UHGV virus genome: UHGV-0087644
DNA from: a virus
Strand: one strand, 5' to 3'
DNA: 13,730 nt
The notes below the pieces were generated by a model. That model did not search any database and was not told the DNA's origin. It saw nothing but the letters and a program-made list of their open reading frames with translations. Positions 1-8,509 of this stretch are shown in pieces. A program made the position numbers and the translations under genes. Numbering within the stretch: the stretch's first letter is position 1; every line of letters starts with the position of its first letter.

Positions 1-68
1 CGAGTAAGTCCGTTATCAAGCGGATTTTTAATGAATAATTCGATACGTTCTTTGGTAATAGTGGTCAT
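1..68 (-). CDS. hypothetical protein, N-terminal fragment (3' end runs off the window)
   Basis: ATG at 68-66 preceded by SD-like AAGGTGA; reads MTTITKERIELFIKNPLDNGLT to the window edge. Only about 22 codons visible. Confidence 0.3.
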   Translation of the reverse strand, partial: MTTITKERIELFIKNPLDNGLT

Positions 69-263
69 AGCTATTTCACCTTAATCTCAACATTTCGCAG
101 CGTTAGCTCTACTGTCAGGTCTGACTTTCCTGTTAATGCTAATGCGATATTTTCTGGGGTAATGAGAGCAGTTATTGCTTACCCCATTGCCAGACGAATA
201 ATTATTCGTATTTCGCGATCGTCACATGCTCCTGGTCGAACGATTGATATTTGTCCGTCCATC

Positions 264-632
264 TCACTCCCCTTTGATGCGAATGCCAGCGGCGCGGATT
301 GCATCGATGACTTCAGAAACTTTGTATGCCATTACCGTTTGGTAATCATCGTGAAAATCTGTTCGATGAAGCATGCTGCTACGTTCCGGGAGCAGTATTT
401 CCCGCTCCTCCAGTTCTGCAATGCGTTTGCTTTGAGCTTCCAGTTCACCCAGTAGTGCCAGCACGGTAGCCGGATTAGCCTTGGCAATAAAATCCCGGAC
501 TGGCTTACAATCAATCTCCGCACTACCGTGACGAATAACGAAAAAATCACCGTTTATTTTTTTAGCTTGCCACTTATCTTTACCGGCTTTCACTGCCACA
601 TCACGCAGTGCCTGATAGTCAATCTCGCTCAC
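264..632 (-). CDS. hypothetical phage protein (possibly Ead/Ea22-like, tentative)
   Basis: 122-aa ORF in track; GTG start at 632-630 preceded by strong SD AAGGAGG; overlaps upstream gene by 14 nt. Family label is from memory of an ANPATVLALLxELE-type motif only. Confidence 0.55.
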   Translation of the reverse strand: MSEIDYQALRDVAVKAGKDKWQAKKINGDFFVIRHGSAEIDCKPVRDFIAKANPATVLALLGELEAQSKRIAELEEREILLPERSSMLHRTDFHDDYQTVMAYKVSEVIDAIRAAGIRIKGE

Positions 633-1113
633 TGGTTACCTCCTTCATAAAAATAATCCAGTGGGTCTTGTCACCCTTTCCTGTTCGTTGACCGATAACA
701 GGCTTTCTGTCGGTCAGTGCCAATATCTGGCGAACAGGTATTTGCGTTTCATTCCATTTAAAAATCAGAACGCCGTATGGCCACAACACACGAAAGGCTT
801 CTTTGAATCCCTGCCGTAAATCATCACGCCAGGTATCTTTATTCAGCCGTCCATATTTCTTTCCCATCCAGGCGTTATCACCAACACGCTCAAGATGCGG
901 AGGGTCGAATACAACCATCGAAAAGGATGCGTCTGCAAATGGTAGTGCACGAAAATCAGCCATCAGGTCAGGACTGATAATCAGGCGTCGTCCATCACAC
1001 AATGTGTGCTCTTCCTTTCTGATATCGCTAAATATCGCCCGGTCGTCATTCTTATCGAACCAGAACATGCGACTACCACAGCACATGTCGAGGATTGCTG
1101 CATGTCCAGTCAC
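619..1113 (-). CDS. small SAM-dependent methyltransferase, probably DNA N6-adenine/N4-cytosine type
   Basis: 164-aa ORF; motif-I-like ILDMCCGS near N-terminus and motif-IV-like VVFDPPH about 60 aa later; GTG start at 1113 with strong SD AAGGAGG, overlapping upstream stop (GTGA). Target and base specificity not determinable by eye. Confidence 0.55.
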   Translation of the reverse strand: MTGHAAILDMCCGSRMFWFDKNDDRAIFSDIRKEEHTLCDGRRLIISPDLMADFRALPFADASFSMVVFDPPHLERVGDNAWMGKKYGRLNKDTWRDDLRQGFKEAFRVLWPYGVLIFKWNETQIPVRQILALTDRKPVIGQRTGKGDKTHWIIFMKEVTSERD

Positions 1114-1802
1114 TGGTTGCCTCCTTTGCGAAGCTGGGCATCGGTATTGATGCGACTAAAATAGAATCCGAATACTTTCTTCCATGGCTTAACAACAGCG
1201 TCCCTGATTGAGTTTGGGTTAAATCCAGCCTCGATGGCCTGTTTGCTGTCAAAGAACACATACCCAAAACCTTCCTCGTTCTCAGCGCAGACTGGACCTT
1301 TATACGAACCGTGTTTTCTTCCCCCGGCCAGACCTGTTCTATATGCGTGCTGAGTGTTGCCCGCTACCGTCGTCCACTCCAGGTTTGAAACATCATTGTT
1401 TTGTTTATTCCCGTCTATATGGTTAATTACGTGCTCATCAGAAGGCTTAGGGCCGAGAAAGTTTTCAGCAACTAATCGGTGGATGTTCACGCCTTTTAGT
1501 TTTCCTTCAAGCTCCAGCCTAACGAATAAATACTGATTTCTGTTCTTGCCGCGCATGGTTGGGTTTAATTGCTTTAGTTCGCCAGAGGCCAATGAGAAAA
1601 TGAGTCCCTTTGAGGTGATGAAATAGCGATACTTAAAACCAAAAATCTCTTTCACATCGCCAAATAAGTCAGCCAGCGCCGCGCACTTGGCCTCCGCTTC
1701 AGCAAATTTACGCACCAGATATTCAGCGTTTGTTTCGTTAACCTTTAAATCACTTGGGATGCATTTACCTTTCAGAAATCCATCCATCTCAATTAGTGTC
1801 AT
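1110..1802 (-). CDS. HNH homing-endonuclease-like protein (NUMOD4 + HNH_3 type)
   Basis: Track ORF 1110-1829; contains [17 protein letters not shown] (NUMOD4-like) then [20 protein letters not shown] (HNH_3 signature). Start chosen at ATG 1802, which overlaps the upstream stop (ATGA); 1811 or GTG 1829 are alternatives. Confidence 0.7.
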
Positions 1803-1972
1803 TTGTTCCATTTCTTCCCACTCCGCCACATTGCATTCAGATATTTGTTGTCATTAACAGAACCGAAACTATTTCTCTTAAGCAATTCCTCTCTCGATGG
1901 CATTGGCTTTACGCGTTGGCGAATAATCATTTCTGCCGGAAGAATGCCGGGATTGTATGCAAGTCCTCTCAT
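1799..1972 (-). CDS. hypothetical small protein (57 aa)
   Basis: Sub-ORF of track ORF 1799-2122; ATG at 1972 preceded by GAGGA; stop overlaps HNH start. The longer track version would overlap the upstream gene extensively. Confidence 0.3.
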
Positions 1973-1982
1973 TGTAAATTCC

Positions 1983-2276
1983 TCAGTCATTACTGATAGC
2001 GCCATAGCGTGAGCGGTAATTACGCAGGCGCGGGTCAATTTCAGGGAAGTGGGTATATGTGGCTTTGCGGAATGGTCGGATTGATGTCTGGTAAATTCGC
2101 TCGCGTTCTTCTTTCTCTGCAAGCCATATACAGTGGCGAAATTCCTTTTCCTCTTTCGTTTCCTGCGGTAGAGACATTATTCGATCGTAGTTTTTTCTGA
2201 ATTTATCCAGCACCTCCGATACGGAATTGCCGGAACAGCGGCGCGGGTCATCCGCACCATACAAAGGCGCTGGCAT
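1983..2276 (-). CDS. hypothetical protein, possibly anti-RecBCD Abc2-like (P22 abc2 position and size)
   Basis: 97-aa ORF with SD AAGGAT before ATG 2276; sits distal to erf as abc2 does in P22. Assignment is by position, size and partial sequence recall, not a search. Confidence 0.45.
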
Positions 2277-2299
2277 AATTAAATCCTTATTTTTCTAAA

Positions 2300-2683
2300 T
2301 CAGAATGGGATGGAATCGTCGTATACAGGAGTGTTCTGCTGGTTACTACTTTGCTGCTGCGGGCCATTTCCTGAAGCTGCAAATCCAATCTTTGCATTCA
2401 GTAATTCAAGAGTGATTGATTGACCATTTTGCCCCTGATAAATATCAACCCTGATGTTTTCTCCGGTAATTTCAACAATGCCACCTTCAACAAGAACACT
2501 ACGGTAGTAATCCGCTTGCGCTCCCGGCTTGGCAAATACAACGGAGCTGTAGTTTGTCCATTCTTTCTTTTTTGTCTGGCGATCGTAATACTGAACGCCA
2601 GCACGGATGTTGAATCCGATATTTTCCCCGGTATGAAACTCTCTTGCGGGCTTGTTTAGTCTTACGGTAATCGAATGTGCCAT
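2300..2683 (-). CDS. mini single-stranded-DNA-binding (SSB-like, OB-fold) protein
   Basis: Start at internal ATG 2683-2681, overlapping erf stop (TAATG); 127 aa ending in DDSIPF, the canonical SSB acidic C-terminal tail, preceded by a Gly/Gln-rich linker and OB-fold-like N-terminal region. Confidence 0.55.
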   Translation of the reverse strand: MAHSITVRLNKPAREFHTGENIGFNIRAGVQYYDRQTKKKEWTNYSSVVFAKPGAQADYYRSVLVEGGIVEITGENIRVDIYQGQNGQSITLELLNAKIGFAASGNGPQQQSSNQQNTPVYDDSIPF

Positions 2684-3288
2684 TAAGCAGCAGCTCCTTC
2701 TAATTCGTCTCGTCTGATGTTGTAAACGTCCTGCGCTTTGTGCTGCTCCGGTGTGCCTTCGAGCATCTTCCACGCTTTGGCGAACGCCTGTTTAAGCTCT
2801 TCTACGGTGTTTTTCTGCATTGCTGCGTCAGTGAATGCTTTTAGAACCTGTTCAGGTGTAGGTGATGGTTTTGATTGCTTTGCTGCTGCGTTCTGCTGAT
2901 GTTTATGCTCGTCGGTATCTGCATCTTTCGCATCATCAATGCCGAACAAACCATTGAGGCAATACTTGCGTGCATAAGAGCTTGTAGCTCCCGTAACTTG
3001 TGCAGAATCCATTCCTTTCTTGCTTTCTTCCTCTCGTGCAAGAGCGGTTGCCGTATGACTGTTTTCGCCATCGGTAATAGTTGCCGTGGCTTTCACGTAA
3101 TACCGATCACCAATCAACACAACTTCATCGCTGATTGATAAAAACAGACCATTCAGTAACGGCTTAACGCCTTCAAGAATGTCTTCGCAGCTTCTGTATT
3201 TATATTTACCGAATGAGTTGTACTGATTCTTTGGCGCGTTCAGATTCTCCTGAATGGCTGCCAGCCTTGCATAAAATTCTTTGCTCAT
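2683..3288 (-). CDS. erf: Erf, essential recombination function (ssDNA annealing) protein
   Basis: Track ORF 2683-3318; sequence from MSKEFYARLAAIQENLNAPKNQYNSFGKYKYRSCEDILEG matches my recollection of P22 Erf. Start placed at ATG 3288 because the 3318 start is a TTG without SD. Confidence 0.8.
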   Translation of the reverse strand: MSKEFYARLAAIQENLNAPKNQYNSFGKYKYRSCEDILEGVKPLLNGLFLSISDEVVLIGDRYYVKATATITDGENSHTATALAREEESKKGMDSAQVTGATSSYARKYCLNGLFGIDDAKDADTDEHKHQQNAAAKQSKPSPTPEQVLKAFTDAAMQKNTVEELKQAFAKAWKMLEGTPEQHKAQDVYNIRRDELEGAAA

Positions 3289-3389
3289 ATGTTTGATCTC
3301 AGAATGGACACGGCCCAAGGAAATAACGCTGATTTAATACTTCGACTCGGGACAAATTAAGGCATACCCGCATTCCTTCGCGGTCGCCA

Positions 3390-3548
3390 TTATGGCGATA
3401 CCAGAGAGCTTTCTGCGTGTACATGCGTCTCTGTAACTTGCTCTCCTTCACTGTGGTTGCAAGTGACATGAATATCTCCTTCGTTACCGATTAATTCTTT
3501 CATCTGACGAATGAATTCTTCGTCTGACCAGTTATCTGTAAAACTCAT
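3390..3548 (-). CDS. small protein in the Arf (accessory recombination function) position
   Basis: 52-aa ORF (MSFTDNWSDEEFIRQMKEL...) not in the track (<60 aa); ATG overlaps kil stop (ATGA); lies between kil and erf as arf does in P22. Position-based call. Confidence 0.4.
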   Translation of the reverse strand: MSFTDNWSDEEFIRQMKELIGNEGDIHVTCNHSEGEQVTETHVHAESSLVSP

Positions 3549-3697
3549 TTCCTGCGATACCACGGAAGGTTGATAGCTGATTTCATCGCTTTATTTGCTT
3601 CAATCCACATTTTTGAATCACCAATAAATCTGGCTATTACTGCTTTGTTCTGTGCTGCACGAAGCATCTGGTGATTGATGGCTATTTCATTGCGCAT
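3545..3697 (-). CDS. kil: Kil-like host cell-division inhibitor
   Basis: 50-aa ORF not in track: MRNEIAINHQMLRAAQNKAVIARFIGDSKMWIEANKAMKSAINLPWYRRK; resembles lambda Kil (FIGD-containing core) from memory; immediately downstream of cIII, start overlapping the cIII end. Confidence 0.55.
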   Translation of the reverse strand: MRNEIAINHQMLRAAQNKAVIARFIGDSKMWIEANKAMKSAINLPWYRRK

Positions 3698-3813
3698 AAT
3701 AAGACCTCAACTCTTTTCCATCCGTCACGTAATTTACGGGTGATTCGTTCAAGTAAAGATTCATTTAGTTGGAAGGCACCCATGCGAGCGCCTCCCGCGA
3801 TTGCGTAAATCAT
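3682..3813 (-). CDS. cIII: CIII, FtsH/HflB protease inhibitor
   Basis: 43-aa ORF not in track; contains ESLLERITRKLRDGWKR, matching the conserved lambda CIII core; ATG at 3813 preceded by SD AAGGAA. Confidence 0.8.
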   Translation of the reverse strand: MIYAIAGGARMGAFQLNESLLERITRKLRDGWKRVEVLLCAMK

Positions 3814-3837
3814 GGGTGGTTCCTTATGTTGGTTTTA

Positions 3838-4806
3838 TTAGTAGGTTATTTTTGTTGCGAATACTTCGCCTTTTACGATGGCTGTTATGATATTTTTAGC
3901 AACATCTTCTGATGCGCCAACCTTGATAAGGTCAGCAAGTATTTTGTTATTTACTTCTTTCCGGTGAGCTTTATCCTTTGCTCTACGCTCTTCTTCGTCC
4001 TTGATTCTTTTTCCTTCTGCTATTCTGGCTTGCTCTTTTGCTTCAGCCTCGCGCCGGATTCGTTCAGCCTCCTCCTGTGCTTTTCGGCGTTCTGCTTCAA
4101 TTGCCGCCTGCTTTTCTCTTTCAGCTCGTTCTGCTGCCTCTTTTGCTTCGCGCTGTGCTCGTTGCTCGGCTTCAATGCGTTCACGCTCTGCACGTTCCGC
4201 TGCGGCCTTAGCTTCTGCTTCTCGCCTTGCTGCTGCTTCAATTTCGGCTTTTGCCTTTGCTTCGGCTTCTGCTCTGGCTTTCTCTTCAGCTTCTCTTTTT
4301 AAGCGTTCTTCATACTCTCGCTTTTCCTGCTCCGCTTTGAGTCTTGCCTCTTCTCTTTGGCGGTCAAATTCGCGATCCATCAAAATAGCTATTTCATGGT
4401 CAGACTCAATTTGCTTTGCGAGAGCTTCAGCTGCTGCCTTAGCTTCTTCTTCGGCTTTAATCCGTGCCTGTTCCTCCTCATAATCAGTAAGAGGCTGGCG
4501 CGCCTTGGCTTTCAGTTCATCAAGGCGATCGCGCACTGTCTTGCGGTTGGCATCAATTAGCTTTGGAATTTCCTTCAGTTCAGCAACAAGGTCTTTGCCA
4601 AGACCATCGAGATATGTTTTCGTCTGCGCAACTTTATACGCCAGAGAAGCGATCTCCTTTCTGCCCTTTGCCGTTGTGATATCAGGCACAAAGGACATAA
4701 CTTCACGTTCAACCCTTTGAAGGATTTCTTCAATCTGGTCGGCAGACTGAAATACAGTCATTGCATTTGCTTTTTCAATAACAACTAAATCTGTTACTTC
4801 ACTCAT
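3838..4806 (-). CDS. coiled-coil protein with long E/R/K/A-rich helical segment, function unknown
   Basis: 322-aa track ORF; ATG 4806 with SD GGAGG; folded-looking N-terminal about 110 aa, then about 160 aa of charged low-complexity helix (EAEAKAKAEIEAAARREAEAKAAAERAERE...), then short C-terminal domain ending KITY. Confidence 0.7.
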   Translation of the reverse strand: MSEVTDLVVIEKANAMTVFQSADQIEEILQRVEREVMSFVPDITTAKGRKEIASLAYKVAQTKTYLDGLGKDLVAELKEIPKLIDANRKTVRDRLDELKAKARQPLTDYEEEQARIKAEEEAKAAAEALAKQIESDHEIAILMDREFDRQREEARLKAEQEKREYEERLKREAEEKARAEAEAKAKAEIEAAARREAEAKAAAERAERERIEAEQRAQREAKEAAERAEREKQAAIEAERRKAQEEAERIRREAEAKEQARIAEGKRIKDEEERRAKDKAHRKEVNNKILADLIKVGASEDVAKNIITAIVKGEVFATKITY

Positions 4807-4818
4807 ATATCCTCCGTC

Positions 4819-4846
4819 AAAAAATTGCCCTCACACTGGAGGGCAA
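4819..4846 (-). terminator. rho-independent terminator candidate (minus strand) just upstream of the coiled-coil gene
   Basis: Perfect 8-bp stem TTGCCCTC/GAGGGCAA (4825-4832 / 4839-4846) with 6-nt loop; A6 run at 4819-4824 on the plus strand gives a U-run after the hairpin on the minus transcript. Confidence 0.55.
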
Positions 4847-4937
4847 AGAAGATTTCCAATAATCAGAACAAGTCGGCTCCTGTTTAGTTACGAGCGACAT
4901 TGCCCACATAGCAGACTCGCAAATCTGCTATATGTGC

Positions 4938-5099
4938 TTATTCGCATCGCATGACAACATCAAATTTTTCGAGATTACTTTGTCGCAACAATCCCTCTTC
5001 TACGCGGTCAGCTTTTCTATAATTATCAAATTCGAAATGTTTAATTACTTCTTTCGTTTCTCGCTCTATAACTTCAACGATGTATTTCTTATTCATCAT
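4938..5099 (-). CDS. hypothetical small protein (53 aa)
   Basis: ORF MMNKKYIVEVIERETKEVIKHFEFDNYRKADRVEEGLLRQSNLEKFDVVMRCE, not in track; ATG overlaps upstream stop (ATGA). Confidence 0.3.
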   Translation of the reverse strand: MMNKKYIVEVIERETKEVIKHFEFDNYRKADRVEEGLLRQSNLEKFDVVMRCE

Positions 5100-5395
5100 T
5101 CTTCCCCAAGAGCTTTGCTGATTGCTGACTGTGCTTTCGATACTTCATCAGGATAATGGTCATTCCAGTTTTGCTTGTATGCCTTGTTTAGCATCGCTTG
5201 CAGGGCATTTAAAAGGTCTGGTGCTGCCGCTATCAGATTCATATCTTCTTTGCTAACGATTAGTGATGAGTGACCATCCTTCATGACATAAGAGTCGATG
5301 ACACCACCATCTTTACCTGTTGCTTGACTGCTTAATCGCAGAAAGCTGTTACTTGTCCACCATTTCCATGGGCCGGGTGTATAATTCATATTCAC
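5096..5395 (-). CDS. hypothetical phage protein (possibly Ead/Ea22-like C-terminal region, tentative)
   Basis: 99-aa track ORF; SD GAGGTG before tandem ATGs at 5395/5389; LIAAAPDLLNALQAM motif recalled from Ea22-like prophage proteins. Confidence 0.5.
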   Translation of the reverse strand: MNMNYTPGPWKWWTSNSFLRLSSQATGKDGGVIDSYVMKDGHSSLIVSKEDMNLIAAAPDLLNALQAMLNKAYKQNWNDHYPDEVSKAQSAISKALGEE

Positions 5396-6897: not shown

Positions 6898-7242
6898 CTA
6901 TGACCATTTTTTATTTGGATTTCGTTGGTGAGCGTGATTAACAACTCTGTGCATTACATCCTCATATTTTTCATCTTCAATTTTTTCGACATCGCGAGGA
7001 AATGGTGTTGCTAATGCTTTGTCAACTTTGTCCATTGGTTCTTCATTAATCTTATATTCAGGACCGTCATCTATAGCATTAAATCCAGGTGTTACACCGT
7101 TTTTTAATGCATATGCTATCCTTTTTTCCCATCTCGCTATTCTCCTCCTGTCTCGAGATGTAAGACCTCTATCAGATACTTTTCTGTTTTGTCCGCGGTC
7201 AGGATTAACATAAATAGTCTTTTTCACCATAAGCATACTCAA
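6898..7242 (-). CDS. hypothetical protein with arginine-rich N-terminal region (114 aa)
   Basis: Track ORF; start overlaps N stop (ATGA); SRDRRRIARWEKRIAYALKNG is basic; followed directly by a terminator. Confidence 0.5.
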   Translation of the reverse strand: MSMLMVKKTIYVNPDRGQNRKVSDRGLTSRDRRRIARWEKRIAYALKNGVTPGFNAIDDGPEYKINEEPMDKVDKALATPFPRDVEKIEDEKYEDVMHRVVNHAHQRNPNKKWS

Positions 7243-7544
7243 TAAGCACCGTACGGTAGTTTACTGTACAATTTTATTTTTTGGACTGCATGTATTTTGT
7301 TTCCTAACGGGTTTGAATCTTTGTAATAAATACTTCTATTTTTTCGAACGACTTCTTCTTTCTTCTTGCAGCAAAGGCTTCCTAGTGATGCTGCTTTGTC
7401 TGCTCTGACGCAACCAGAGAGCTTTAGCGCAATTTTTCGCGCCAGTGCTTCATTACTGCGTCGCTCGGCAATAAGTTCTGCTCTGCGAGCTTTGTAGCGG
7501 CTTTTTGCCGTACCTTTGGATTCTTTCCAGACAATGGTTACCAT
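7239..7544 (-). CDS. N: N-like transcription antitermination protein (phi21-type arginine-rich motif)
   Basis: Track ORF 7239-7574 trimmed to ATG 7544 (SD AGGAG); N-terminus MVTIVWKESKGTAKSRYKARRAELIAERR matches the phi21 N arginine-rich RNA-binding peptide as I recall it; nutL lies upstream. Confidence 0.75.
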   Translation of the reverse strand: MVTIVWKESKGTAKSRYKARRAELIAERRSNEALARKIALKLSGCVRADKAASLGSLCCKKKEEVVRKNRSIYYKDSNPLGNKIHAVQKIKLYSKLPYGAY

Positions 7545-7654
7545 AATGGTCTCCTTTAAGTGGCTTTGGCGCATGACGCGTCGAGGTGCTTATCTTCTCG
7601 ATCGCTGTCTTGCAGCTGCAATTCGCGCCATCCCCAAAACCACTCAAGTTCTGG

Positions 7655-7834: not shown

Positions 7835-7860
7835 AAATAAAAAAGGGGCGAAAGCCCCTT
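7835..7860 (-). terminator. rho-independent terminator for the cI transcript
   Basis: Stem AAGGGGC/GCCCCTT (7843-7849 / 7854-7860) with GAAA loop, followed on the minus strand by UUUUAUUU; overlaps the cI stop codon. Confidence 0.55.
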
Positions 7861-8509
7861 AAGGAAGGTTTGCTAGCTTGGCATCAACGACAACGCCAAT
7901 GATTTTACAGTTCCCATTGATTTCAATCATTGGGTATTGTGGATTGAGTGGTTTCAGGAATTTTCTACCGGCATCAATAACTAACTTTTTGAATGTCGCC
8001 TCGTTTTCCCCTTCAAGTTTGGCGACTACCAGCTTTCCATTACGTGGTTCGACTTCTGGGTCGACGAGAATAATCATCCCCTCAGGAATACTCAGTCCTG
8101 CCGGGGCAGTCATTGAATCGCCTTTAACGTCGAGCCAAAAAGAGTCTTCAGAACAATCTACCGTTGTGTCGTACCAGTTATCTATTGCACGCCTATGATA
8201 TGGCTCTACAGCTTCCATCCAACATCCTGCGCTTACCCAACTAATTAGAGGATACGAACCTCTTGGATCATGCCTGCTGTGATAGGCAATGTTTGAAAGA
8301 CTATCCTCTCCTTTCAACAGGTAATCAGGGGAGCACTGCAAAGCCTTGGCTAAGGCCAATAGGTTTTCGCCATTGGGCTCAGTTTCAGATCGCTCCCATT
8401 GGGAAATAGCAACATTAGACACGCCAACCATCTTGCCAAGGGCAGCCTGCCTAATCTTGAGTTCTTTTCTGCGAGCGCGAATACGCTCACCCATCAGTTG
8501 TGTATTCAT
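7859..8509 (-). CDS. cI: CI-type prophage repressor (HTH + S24 LexA-like peptidase domain)
   Basis: 216-aa track ORF; N-terminal HTH (QAALGKMVGVSNVAISQWER); C-terminal FWLDVKGDSMTAPAGLSIPEGMIILVDP...ATFKKL...FLKPLNPQYPMIE closely parallels the lambda CI C-terminal domain. Confidence 0.9.
   Translation of the reverse strand: MNTQLMGERIRARRKELKIRQAALGKMVGVSNVAISQWERSETEPNGENLLALAKALQCSPDYLLKGEDSLSNIAYHSRHDPRGSYPLISWVSAGCWMEAVEPYHRRAIDNWYDTTVDCSEDSFWLDVKGDSMTAPAGLSIPEGMIILVDPEVEPRNGKLVVAKLEGENEATFKKLVIDAGRKFLKPLNPQYPMIEINGNCKIIGVVVDAKLANLP

Follow-up and report, generated by a model that had tools for sequence, protein, structure and literature searches.

An in-frame eaE::HNH chimera abutting an orphan methyltransferase gene in a P22-like prophage: two accessory cassettes probably joined at a reusable gene junction

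The gene pair and its surroundings

The window analyzed in this work is the whole stretch of 13,730 nucleotides available for the virus genome UHGV-0087644; its bases 1-5113 are 100% identical to a metagenome scaffold, the end of which coincides with the window start. ORF calling in the window confirmed two minus-strand ORFs that had been reported in an earlier note made from the sequence alone, an HNH endonuclease gene and a gene for a small methyltransferase (hereafter: the methylase), as well as their overlap by GTGA (Table 1). The stop codon of the HNH gene and the start codon of the methylase gene lie within these four nucleotides (...AAAGGAGGCAACCAGTGACTGG...), with an AGGAGG Shine-Dalgarno sequence located 7 nt upstream. 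For the HNH gene, the ATG at 1811 yields a protein of 233 aa and an alternative ATG at 1802 a protein of 230 aa; gene callers start the HNH_3 gene of identical contigs at the former (233 aa). The stop of the DUF2737 gene overlaps this start region.

According to profile searches and gene calls, the pair is preceded by erf, ssb, abc2 and the DUF2737 gene and followed by an Ea22-like gene, while genes for a repressor, cII, O, a DnaB-like helicase and NinB are found further along. Both genes lie within the early-left operon of a P22-like/lambdoid prophage, in its "ea" (exo-xis-like) segment. They do not form the distal end of the leftward operon, where they had been placed before, as the Ea22-like gene and further genes follow. 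A scan for promoters and terminators of an independent transcription unit revealed no internal signal above chance. A comparison of the methylomes of a lysogen and a cured strain would probably be uninformative, given that the early-left operon containing both genes is under repressor control and that the scan gave no internal promoter-like site.

Table 1. Features of the HNH/methylase region, in window coordinates
Feature	Position	Strand	Details and evidence
DUF2737 gene, upstream of HNH	1799..1972	minus	Pfam DUF2737 2.5e-29; gene call on identical contig L009
Predicted chimeric EaE-leader::HNH endonuclease CDS	1110..1811	minus	233 aa; ORF, Pfam HNH_3, I-HmuI 1U3E, PADLOC HEase
EaE/Ea22-type N-terminal leader (M(EQ)...AEAKCAALA)	1686..1811	minus	DNA-level matches to HNH-less eaE genes
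I-HmuI-like HNH core cassette (...DLFGDVKEI to ...FSRINTDA)	1137..1685	minus	blastn breakpoints, loci with and without HNH
Portable gene junction: tail codons, Shine-Dalgarno, GTGA stop/start overlap	1110..1136	minus	
Predicted orphan small class-I SAM-dependent methyltransferase CDS	619..1113	minus	164 aa, GTG start, DxCCGS motif I, DPPH motif IV
Second copy of junction core (GGAGGTAACCAGTGA), methylase/Ea22 boundary	629..643	minus	pattern search
Ead/Ea22-like gene, downstream of methylase	264..632	minus	122 aa; Pfam Ead_Ea22 1.1e-14; phrog_1667 1e-52

A chimeric homing-type nuclease and a minimal methyltransferase

The earlier note had assigned NUMOD4-like and HNH_3 motifs to the nuclease. 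Pfam identified the HNH_3 domain (E-value 6.7e-14, 51.7 bits vs a cut-off of 24.8, aa 107-150), and the HEase model of PADLOC matched the protein with an E-value of 1.8e-18. Neither NUMOD4 nor a C-terminal NUMOD-like module was detected by Pfam at E<=0.01, yet the alignment of residues 51-158 to the solved structure of the homing endonuclease I-HmuI (1U3E, E-value 3.9e-8) covers the NUMOD4-like N-terminal region; PF07463 (NUMOD4) and PF22083 (I-HmuI_NUMOD-like) are present in distant HNH relatives and in ORF48 of phage A2. The catalytic stretch aligns to I-HmuI DHKDGNKDNNLSTNLRW with the general-base His and the metal-site Asn residues kept, and the catalytic NH...N...N pattern is kept in all relatives of the HNH family that were inspected. 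The I-HmuI metal ligand Asp74 corresponds to Asn, a substitution found family-wide, including free-standing NUMOD4-positive relatives. The predicted product of the HNH gene is an HNH endonuclease of the I-HmuI type, in which a NUMOD4-like beta domain and the HNH motif are followed by a C-terminal tail.

The ORF is an in-frame chimera, in which about 47 codons of an eaE-type gene are followed by the HNH core and by the junction-encoded tail QLRKGGNQ. The 5' 117-133 nt of the leader match more than 150 phage records at 91-98% identity, under genes annotated as "Eae", "Ead/Ea22-like" or hypothetical, phrog_614, phrog_583 and phrog_14548 match aa 1-45 of the ORF, and the leader also aligns to the EaE alleles of two HNH-less loci (L003 and L006, see below). 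In the comparisons of leaders and cores the left breakpoint invariably falls after ...ALA and before DLF. The core was found, at 92-100% identity, fused to at least four different leaders (in proteins of 233, 254/282, 230 and 228 aa), cores of 57-80% identity bear further leaders, and free-standing forms of 191-193 aa also occur. One of the readings offered earlier, a free-standing homing endonuclease that landed beside a phage methylase, is essentially borne out, except that the nuclease, being fused in frame to the eaE leader, cannot be called free-standing.

Compared with its counterpart in phage epsilon34, the HNH core has a dN/dS of 0.13 over 186 codons, and the ORF is intact across lineages; the dN/dS value indicates purifying selection. 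This intactness, together with the retained catalytic His and Asn residues, has to be weighed against the view that the gene is a decaying or domesticated remnant, either an EaE/Ea22-type regulatory variant or functionless, spread passively by module shuffling. Such a view would be in line with the fusion of the HNH to EaE-type leaders throughout the Enterobacteria, with the remark "possibly defective" made by the annotators of epsilon34, with a 1-nt deletion that alters the tail in one E. coli copy, and with the Asn at the metal ligand, which is however shared by the free-standing NUMOD4-positive relatives. Moreover, an active mobile cassette would be expected to show just what is seen, a presence/absence polymorphism at one locus combined with several leaders. 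The HNH protein may be inactive or domesticated; we consider the remnant explanation as a whole unlikely.

In the methylase, the motifs DMCCGS and DPPH pointed out in the earlier note are located at aa 9-14 and 70-73, respectively. The protein matches phrog_954 "DNA methyltransferase" (E-value 8e-88) and the PADLOC models MTase_II (2.7e-73) and oMTase (1.7e-49), whose names are annotation-derived. No curated Pfam methyltransferase family scored above threshold (Methyltransf_11: 18.7 bits vs a cut-off of 21.2; N6_N4_Mtase, MethyltransfD12, Dam and MT-A70: no match), and NCBIfam reported nothing meaningful. A PDB sequence search with the single sequence gave no specific match, and the search with the family profile gave only generic class-I matches and weak Trm11, RsmD-like and UPF0020 tails. 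The AlphaFold2 model (pLDDT 93) corresponds to a bare seven-stranded Rossmann-like core with no extra domain and no alpha-helix in its first 80 residues; in Foldseek, M.TaqI came up only at an E-value of ~8e-4. Within the family, D9xCCG13S and D30 are invariant or nearly so in 44 diverse members, and D70-P71-P72-H73 (catalytic motif IV) is invariant.

The small size and the lack of a target-recognition domain noted before were both confirmed: the family core comprises only ~155 aa, no such domain is found in the core or in the model, and the N- and C-terminal extensions of relatives are not conserved. The N-terminal extensions of longer members were considered as recognition domains and rejected, being heterogeneous and not conserved, and the forms of ~248-279 aa turned out to be C-terminal read-through fusions with adjacent Ea22-type genes. 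The isoelectric point of the methylase (8.5, vs a family median of 8.4) is not discriminating. The dN/dS of 0.08 relative to the copy from an Stx2c phage indicates purifying selection. The family is very large, with members of 45-66% aa identity in temperate phages across phyla (hosts: Proteobacteria, Firmicutes, Actinobacteria, Bacteroidetes and Fusobacteria). Altogether, sequence and model point to a class I (Rossmann-fold) SAM-dependent methyltransferase of an orphan phage family. We infer that its most likely target is the exocyclic amino group of a nucleic-acid base, with N6-methyladenine or N4-methylcytosine in DNA as the product, and that it most likely protects the replicating phage DNA from host restriction. 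The literature search, directed at experiments on this family and at HNH-methylase pairs of the exo-xis/ea region, retrieved nothing relevant beyond the epsilon34 genome paper. Of wider interest is what this very widespread minimal DPPH family methylates. There is a slim chance that the methylase represents a new class of nucleic-acid methylase (e.g. non-specific, structure-specific or dependent on a host partner) acting as a broad counter-defence, beside which I-HmuI-like HNHs would land repeatedly, drawn by a conserved homing target.

A portable junction, empty sites and independent inheritance

The junction between the two genes is a sequence of ~21 nt (CGCAAAGGAGGCAACCAGTGA) that combines a Shine-Dalgarno sequence with the overlapping stop and start (GTGA). 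The same junction is found between unrelated genes in three other loci (L004, L005 and L006), and at least 120 contigs of IMG/VR contain the exact 21-mer, where the genes before it represent at least 8 protein clusters and those after it at least 16. A pattern describing its core has 2 matches in the window vs 0.04 expected, and these copies flank the methylase cassette; at the second copy the methylase frame reads through, resulting in a 14-nt overlap with the Ea22-like gene. Homology breakpoints fall within the junction, and the methylase start overlaps the upstream ORF by 4 nt in 26 of 73 other loci. As the junction is common to many unrelated gene pairs, the GTGA overlap marks no special relationship. 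Adjacency with a 4-nt stop/start overlap should not be taken for a functional pair in a phage accessory region: since the overlap rides on a reusable junction moved by recombination, it is uninformative on pairing.

Comparison with HNH-lacking relatives, proposed earlier as a way of detecting a precise insertion, did reveal empty-site alleles. Genes of the EaE type with the same leader and no HNH encode 180 aa in L003 and 183 aa in L006, with tails of the same type as in the window (QIRKGGSQ) or identical to it (QLRKGGNQ), respectively. In L003 the HNH-less gene immediately precedes the methylase, to which it is linked by the same junction as in the window. In HNH-less alleles, for example those of the L003 and L006 types, the site in question spans ...GCCAAGTGCGCGGCGCTGGC/GGCGGAGAAT.... 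HNH-plus and HNH-less alleles have the leader and the junction in common, i.e. there is a presence/absence polymorphism at a fixed locus. The change is no clean insertion: the body of eaE has been replaced between two short stretches of conserved sequence. For the second cassette, the junction between a hypothetical gene and the Ea22 gene in L006 equals the window sequence minus the methylase cassette between its two junction repeats. The locus, with a filled and an empty site for each cassette, illustrates neatly how short conserved boundary sequences build lambdoid mosaics, and also how a homing-type HNH gene can borrow its translation start from a resident gene.

The two genes are inherited independently. 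None of 5,426 complete E. coli genomes and none of 50,697 phage records spans the HNH/methylase junction, and 1,075 of the E. coli genomes match one half of the pair; the arrangement, and also the exact methylase, is confined to one lineage (9 contigs). Among 160 loci with methylase relatives, an I-HmuI-like HNH was found within 2.5 kb in 4 and abutting the methylase in none. The closest relatives of the methylase (91-96% identical, L095-L100) are not accompanied by an HNH. The genes upstream of methylase relatives (73 in total) represent 24 Pfam families, and 75 downstream genes include one HNH_2 and no HNH_3; the gene 3' of the methylase in Listeria phage A118, gp51, was considered as an HNH and rejected, as it is a DUF1642 protein. 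Conversely, the HNH core is followed elsewhere in Enterobacteria by a P22 gp32-like ORF or by DUF7739, and epsilon34 carries the HNH with no homologue of the window methylase in its genome.

These distribution data largely refute the other reading offered earlier, an RM-like, addiction or exclusion module in which the HNH protein attacks unmethylated DNA while the co-translated methylase protects self, and we regard it as highly improbable. HNH-type restriction enzymes do exist, the genes are adjacent, co-transcribed and overlap by 4 nt in the window lineage, and there is one other adjacent pair, in phage A2. However, the nuclease matches homing-endonuclease models and I-HmuI rather than restriction-enzyme models, the methylase has no specificity domain able to match a nuclease site, and the overlap is the generic junction. 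A toxin-antitoxin or addiction pair is likewise contradicted by the lack of a conserved two-gene cassette: the HNH stands without the methylase in epsilon34, which is a viable phage, and the methylase without the HNH at 160 of 160 sampled loci.

Alternatively, I-HmuI-like HNHs could home in or next to the conserved methylase gene or the junction, and recurrently land beside it. Homing targets are typically conserved genes, the methylase, at 45-66% aa identity across phyla, is conserved to an unusual degree, and the window and phage A2 provide two independent adjacencies with opposite gene orders, to which the 4 loci with an HNH within 2.5 kb can be added. By a rough estimate, however, 4 of 160 is about chance for a common phage gene family, the closest methylase relatives have no HNH, and the enterobacterial core is tied to the eaE leader rather than to the methylase, occurring with several leaders and other downstream genes. 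A target preference of this kind seems to us quite improbable. Some non-random association of HNH and methylase may exist, given the abutting pair of phage A2 in the opposite order.

We consider it probable that recombination at a reusable gene junction brought together two accessory cassettes that are unrelated and mobile independently of each other. This is ordinary phage mosaicism and not a nuclease-plus-protective-methylase system. The HNH gene would most likely be a selfish homing-type element: during co-infection, or superinfection of a lysogen, its product would nick or cut HNH-less eaE alleles, and repair off the HNH-bearing genome by the phage Erf/SSB recombination functions would copy the cassette in, for which the conserved leader (...GCCAAGTGCGCGGCGCTGGC) would serve as one homology arm and the junction on the 3' side as the other. 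Replacement of the eaE gene body could also reflect plain module shuffling, with no homing driven by the nuclease. The adjacency of HNH and methylase, with the GTGA overlap, would result from homologous recombination at the ~21-nt junction, which bounds many local cassettes and would also couple translation to whichever gene stands upstream.

Comparison with known systems

Gene 31 of epsilon34 was published in 2008 as an in-frame eaE::HNH fusion (Villafane et al., PMC2629481). Like gene 26 of g341c, it occupies the same slot as the window gene, after abc2 and a small DUF2737-type ORF; the gene encodes 230 aa, as does that of the window when started at the ATG at 1802, its HNH core is 88% identical at the DNA level, and the left breakpoint is the same (...KCAALA/DLF...). 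It differs in its N-terminal leader and in a diverged tail and junction (QIHKGVQS, ATGA), and in epsilon34 a P22 gp32-like ORF and EaF are located downstream. I-HmuI of Bacillus phage SPO1 aligns to the window protein over ~105 residues, comprising the N-terminal beta domain and the HNH motif. Unlike the intron-encoded I-HmuI, the window HNH is fused to a host-gene leader, its C-terminal DNA-binding region is unrecognized by Pfam, and Asp74 is replaced.

Type II restriction-modification systems with HNH nucleases, e.g. KpnI, Hpy99I and PacI, resemble the window in that an HNH nuclease gene adjoins a methyltransferase gene. They differ in that the window pair is not co-inherited, its nuclease is of the homing (I-HmuI) type and occurs in viable epsilon34 without the methylase, and its methylase is devoid of a specificity domain. 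The idea of boundary sequences reportedly goes back to the analysis of HK620 by Clark et al. in 2001. The concept, as cited in PMC3029335, proposes that module exchange in lambdoid phages is mediated by short conserved "boundary sequences". The window junction is similar as a sequence of ~21 nt conserved at the edges of otherwise unrelated genes; it is unlike them in doubling as a translational-coupling signal (Shine-Dalgarno and GTGA) and in giving unrelated proteins the common C-terminal peptide QLRKGGNQ.

PamA from the S. aureus prophage mPhi11 (141 aa, NPPY, GATC m6A; PMC12435837) demonstrates that tiny methylases can be active and sequence-specific on DNA (PMC12435837). Like the window methylase it is very small and phage-encoded, with no partner restriction enzyme and no separate target-recognition domain, and has a (D/N)PP(Y/H) catalytic motif; the window motif is DPPH and follows an N-terminal motif I. 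PamA was rejected as a characterized homologue (BLASTP E-value 0.22, hhalign probability 0.5%). Finally, ORF47-ORF48 of Lactobacillus phage A2 combine a member of the window methylase's family (49% identical) with an abutting I-HmuI-like HNH (NUMOD4, HNH_3 and NUMOD-like domains), the two overlapping by 4 nt; unlike in the window, the methylase gene precedes that of the HNH, which is free-standing (183 aa), and the pair resides in another host phylum and another genomic region.

Genomic setting and reading frames

The window belongs to a P22-like/lambdoid prophage whose early-left operon occupies the minus strand (see table), with the repressor, cII, O, a DnaB-like helicase and NinB to its right; an identical genome contig also has called CIII and Kil genes, at the equivalent of 3545-3813. 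Positions 1-5113 match the end of a human-gut metagenome scaffold at 100% identity and the genome contig GCA_037640145.1 at 99.8%. Past the Ea22-like gene on the latter (L007, 5046-8495) come a gene for a dATP/dGTP pyrophosphohydrolase-DUF551 protein and a pair of small ORFs, and then LacY-like and PfkB genes of the host; gene calling gave no integrase in this stretch, and the prophage end may therefore be rearranged or defective. The 322-aa product of the early-left operon has a very high content of E, A, K and R and is hence probably a coiled-coil protein; it belongs to no Pfam family, and the NCBI label of the equivalent gene is only "coiled-coil domain-containing protein". Two ORFs (114 and 111 aa; 6898-7574, minus strand) directly downstream of the repressor gene and on the same strand have no Pfam match; since their position resembles that of lambda rexAB or P22 sieB, they are candidates for exclusion or defence genes that the lysogen expresses.

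Features of the early-left operon and repressor in the window, and gene boundaries carrying the junction in other loci
Feature	Location	Strand	Remark
Probable coiled-coil protein	3838-4806	minus	early-left operon
Small ORFs	between coiled-coil protein gene and Erf gene	minus	
Erf	2683-3318	minus	
SSB-like protein	2300-2773	minus	
Abc2 anti-RecBCD	1983-2276	minus	
DUF2737	1799-1972	minus	
HNH gene	1110-1811	minus	
Methyltransferase gene	619-1113	minus	
Ead/Ea22-like gene	264-632	minus	
Repressor	7859-8509	minus	
Junction	L006 (E. coli KSC207)		hypothetical/Ea22
Junction	L004		DUF2737/methylase
Junction	L003 (Stx2c phage)		EaE-like/methylase
Junction	L006 (E. coli KSC207)		Ea22-like/methylase
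Junction, ATGA variant	L005 (E. coli D53-1)		HNH/DUF7739

The HNH and methylase genes overlap by GTGA, as the earlier note had it: the last two bases of the methylase GTG start and the next A form the HNH stop, and an AGGAGG Shine-Dalgarno sequence lies 7 nt upstream of the GTG. The methylase motifs named there, DMCCGS and DPPH, were found at residues 9-14 and 70-73. As to the NUMOD4-like and HNH_3 motifs assigned to the nuclease, HNH_3 was recovered (E 6.7e-14), but Pfam detects no NUMOD4 in the window's HNH protein, only in more distant relatives. Nor is the pair at the very end of the operon, where it had been placed. PADLOC REBASE-style models label the methylase "Type II / orphan methyltransferase" and the HNH protein "homing endonuclease". 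No promoter- or terminator-like signals above chance were found on the minus strand of 1-2400, from which we infer that both genes are transcribed from the repressor-controlled leftward transcript.

A nuclease core in the eaE slot

The HNH ORF is chimeric, and its parts are joined in frame. Residues 51-158 align to the solved HNH homing endonuclease I-HmuI (1U3E, E 3.9e-8), and the first ~45 residues match EaE/Ea22-type PHROGs, not nucleases. In most of the 167 phage records matched, the 5' 105-133 nt of the gene are 91-98% identical to eaE/ea22-type or hypothetical genes; the HNH core (at least 80% of the gene) was matched in only 11. The protein search revealed that the core, at 92-100% identity, carries at least four different leaders (233-, 254/282-, 230- and 228-aa forms) and that cores of 57-80% identity are fused to further ones (238-, 273- and 237-aa forms), always with the join after ...ALA and before DLF; free-standing versions of 191-193 aa occur in other bacteria. 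HNH-less alleles of the Stx2c phage and E. coli KSC207 encode EaE-like proteins of 180 and 183 aa, respectively, with the window's leader and the same kind of tail, and the DNA of the window is identical to that of the Stx2c phage through ...GAGGCCAAGTGCGCGGCGCTGGC, diverging right after. The HNH cassette therefore spans ~1137-1685, between the EaE leader (1686-1811) and the junction-encoded tail (1110-1136), as a replacement of the eaE gene body rather than a simple insertion.

A fusion of this kind was described in 2008, when gene 31 of Salmonella phage epsilon34 was reported (genome paper, PMC2629481, and annotation) to join an eaE N-terminus in frame to a putative HNH homing endonuclease. 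Its HNH core is 88% identical to the window's at the DNA level, and its 230-aa ORF has the length of the window's ORF counted from the ATG at 1802. Comparison of the two cores (dN 0.065, dS 0.516, ratio 0.13) shows purifying selection. The catalytic His/Asn pattern is conserved, and the Asp-to-Asn change relative to I-HmuI is no sign of decay, because it is common to all relatives, including the NUMOD4-positive ones. The fusion is probably an active selfish homing-type nuclease that would spread among eaE alleles, aided by the phage's own recombination genes.

A 98% identical copy in E. coli D53-1 (2480-3203), with DUF7739 downstream of its ATGA junction, lacks 1 nt immediately ahead of the junction, which alters the tail to …DASFAKEATNECISY; PGAP splits it into a pseudogene and a 153-aa HNH.

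A portable junction and independent inheritance of the two genes

The GTGA overlap lies in a ~21-nt sequence, CGCAAAGGAGGCARCCAGTGA (window 1110-1136 and 629-643), which combines the Shine-Dalgarno sequence with the overlapping stop/start and is conserved between many unrelated accessory genes; in several loci the boundary of unrelated genes reads CGCAAAGGAGGCA(A/G)CCAGTGA. The exact 21-mer is present in at least 120 IMG/VR contigs (loci L177-L256 included). Among the matches listed, 122 junctions have upstream ORFs of at least 8 clusters and downstream ORFs of at least 16, the methylase being downstream in only 5 of the 122. The junction forces a common C-terminal peptide, (Q)LRKGGNQ, onto unrelated proteins, and distant HNH homologues also possess a related "QLR..G" tail. 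Two copies of the junction core (629-643 and 1110-1124; 0.04 expected by chance) flank the methylase cassette, and the hypothetical/Ea22 junction of E. coli KSC207 is the remainder expected if that cassette were deleted between them; filled and empty sites exist for both cassettes. A 4-nt overlap between the methylase start and the ORF before it, whatever the product of that ORF, was seen in 26 of 73 cases in the sampled genomes, and the GTGA overlap is therefore a trait of the regional architecture (translational coupling and recombination linker), not of the HNH/methylase pair. It has long been proposed that lambdoid phages exchange modules by means of short conserved sequences at module boundaries (an idea cited in PMC3029335), and the arrangement here agrees with that.

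In the window's lineage the methylase frame stays open across the junction TGA (619-645), so that the protein ends in KEVTSERD and its gene overlaps the Ea22-like one by 14 nt, whereas close relatives (P0001) end in ...FMKEGNQ at GTGA; the cause is a 1-nt length difference in the junction.

The pairing was assessed with a 501-nt query centered on the HNH/methylase junction. Coverage of at least 80% was reached in 0 of 5,426 complete E. coli genomes and 0 of 50,697 phage records; one half of the query was matched in 1,075 genomes, with matches on the methylase side ending at ~1134-1140 and those on the HNH side beginning at ~1107-1121. The exact methylase sequence occurs on nine contigs, and the HNH-methylase-Ea22 arrangement represents one lineage, since all six contigs read in detail share the window's order. 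At other loci the gene before the methylase is DUF2737, EaE-like, Ea22-like, LygF or another one, and the HNH gene is followed by a P22 gp32-like ORF or DUF7739. An HMM of I-HmuI-like HNH proteins, applied to 80 species genomes and 80 viral contigs with methylase relatives, gave hits within 2.5 kb in only 4 of these, and none abuts the methylase. The 73 immediate upstream neighbors comprise 24 Pfam families of at most 3 members each, with a single weak HNH match, and the 75 downstream neighbors include one HNH_2 and no HNH_3. The complete genome of epsilon34, a viable phage with the HNH fusion, contains no methylase homologue (best tblastn E 0.068).

A second abutting pair, and no further one, was found: in Lactobacillus phage A2 (L093, 3992-5028), a Gram-positive phage, a 49% identical family methylase gene comes first and overlaps by 4 nt the gene of a free-standing I-HmuI-like HNH (NUMOD4, HNH_3 and NUMOD-like), an order opposite to the window's; we treat it as a second sporadic adjacency. 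Homing of the HNH near a conserved methylase gene could account for such adjacency, although we regard it as a minor alternative. The proposal of the earlier note that nuclease and methylase form an RM-like, addiction or exclusion module is very improbable and was rejected: the two genes are no conserved pair and are inherited independently, and their side-by-side position is a lineage-specific recombinant.

The methylase family

Public resources already annotate both gene families, and the eaE::HNH fusion has been in print since 2008; the remaining interest lies in the minimal, extraordinarily widespread methylase family. The window's enzyme comes from a huge family of orphan phage methylases: it matches at least 7,987 clusters built at 90% identity and 2,020 built at 50%. 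Relatives were found in 342 species-representative genomes (including Pseudomonas, Psychrobacter, Brucella and Microbacterium) and, at 45-66% identity, in 256 phage records, including Streptococcus, Vibrio, Acinetobacter, Porphyromonas, Listeria A118, Gordonia, Enterococcus, Lactobacillus A2 and Staphylococcus phages. The conserved core comprises ~155 aa, with heterogeneous N-terminal extensions. Forms of ~248-279 aa are read-through fusions with neighboring genes, which apparently arose via a lost junction stop; in many of them (P0002, P0014, P0082, P0105) the core is C-terminally fused to Ea22-type or other downstream proteins. Invariant residues include C12, D30, R32, P48, D70-P71-P72-H73, E105, R108, K119 and W120, and dN/dS relative to the Stx2c-phage copy is 0.08, which shows strong purifying selection.

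In the AlphaFold2 model of the window's methylase (m2de3052066a1, confident), DSSP assigns no helix to residues 1-80. The helices after strands 1-3, which normally pack on one face of the Rossmann sheet, are apparently absent or give way to loops and a hairpin, and that face may be covered by oligomerization or a partner. A copy in Escherichia phage PhiR42_1 (L001, 3001-3493), located after LygF and the O replication gene and outside the ea region, is a pseudogene with in-frame stop codons.

DPPH-type motifs are associated with methylation of exocyclic amino groups, as in N6-adenine and N4-cytosine DNA methylases and N2-guanine RNA methylases, and by this analogy the motif points to such a target here. 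We lean slightly toward DNA as the substrate, a judgement rather than a computed value. Neighbors in other species (L013-L092) include DNA methylases (N6_N4_Mtase, C-5, MT-A70), the Lar restriction-alleviation protein, PAPS-reductase-like proteins and Rv2179c-like exonucleases, a neighborhood consistent with, though no proof of, a role in DNA modification or anti-restriction. The enzyme could modify phage DNA early in infection or induction and so permit evasion of restriction. A literature search found no experimental studies of this family. The S. aureus prophage mPhi11 encodes PamA, a 141-aa GATC-specific m6A methylase with an NPPY motif (PMC12435837). It has no detectable relationship to the window's methylase; it is an equally small phage enzyme without a recognition domain, yet an active DNA methylase.
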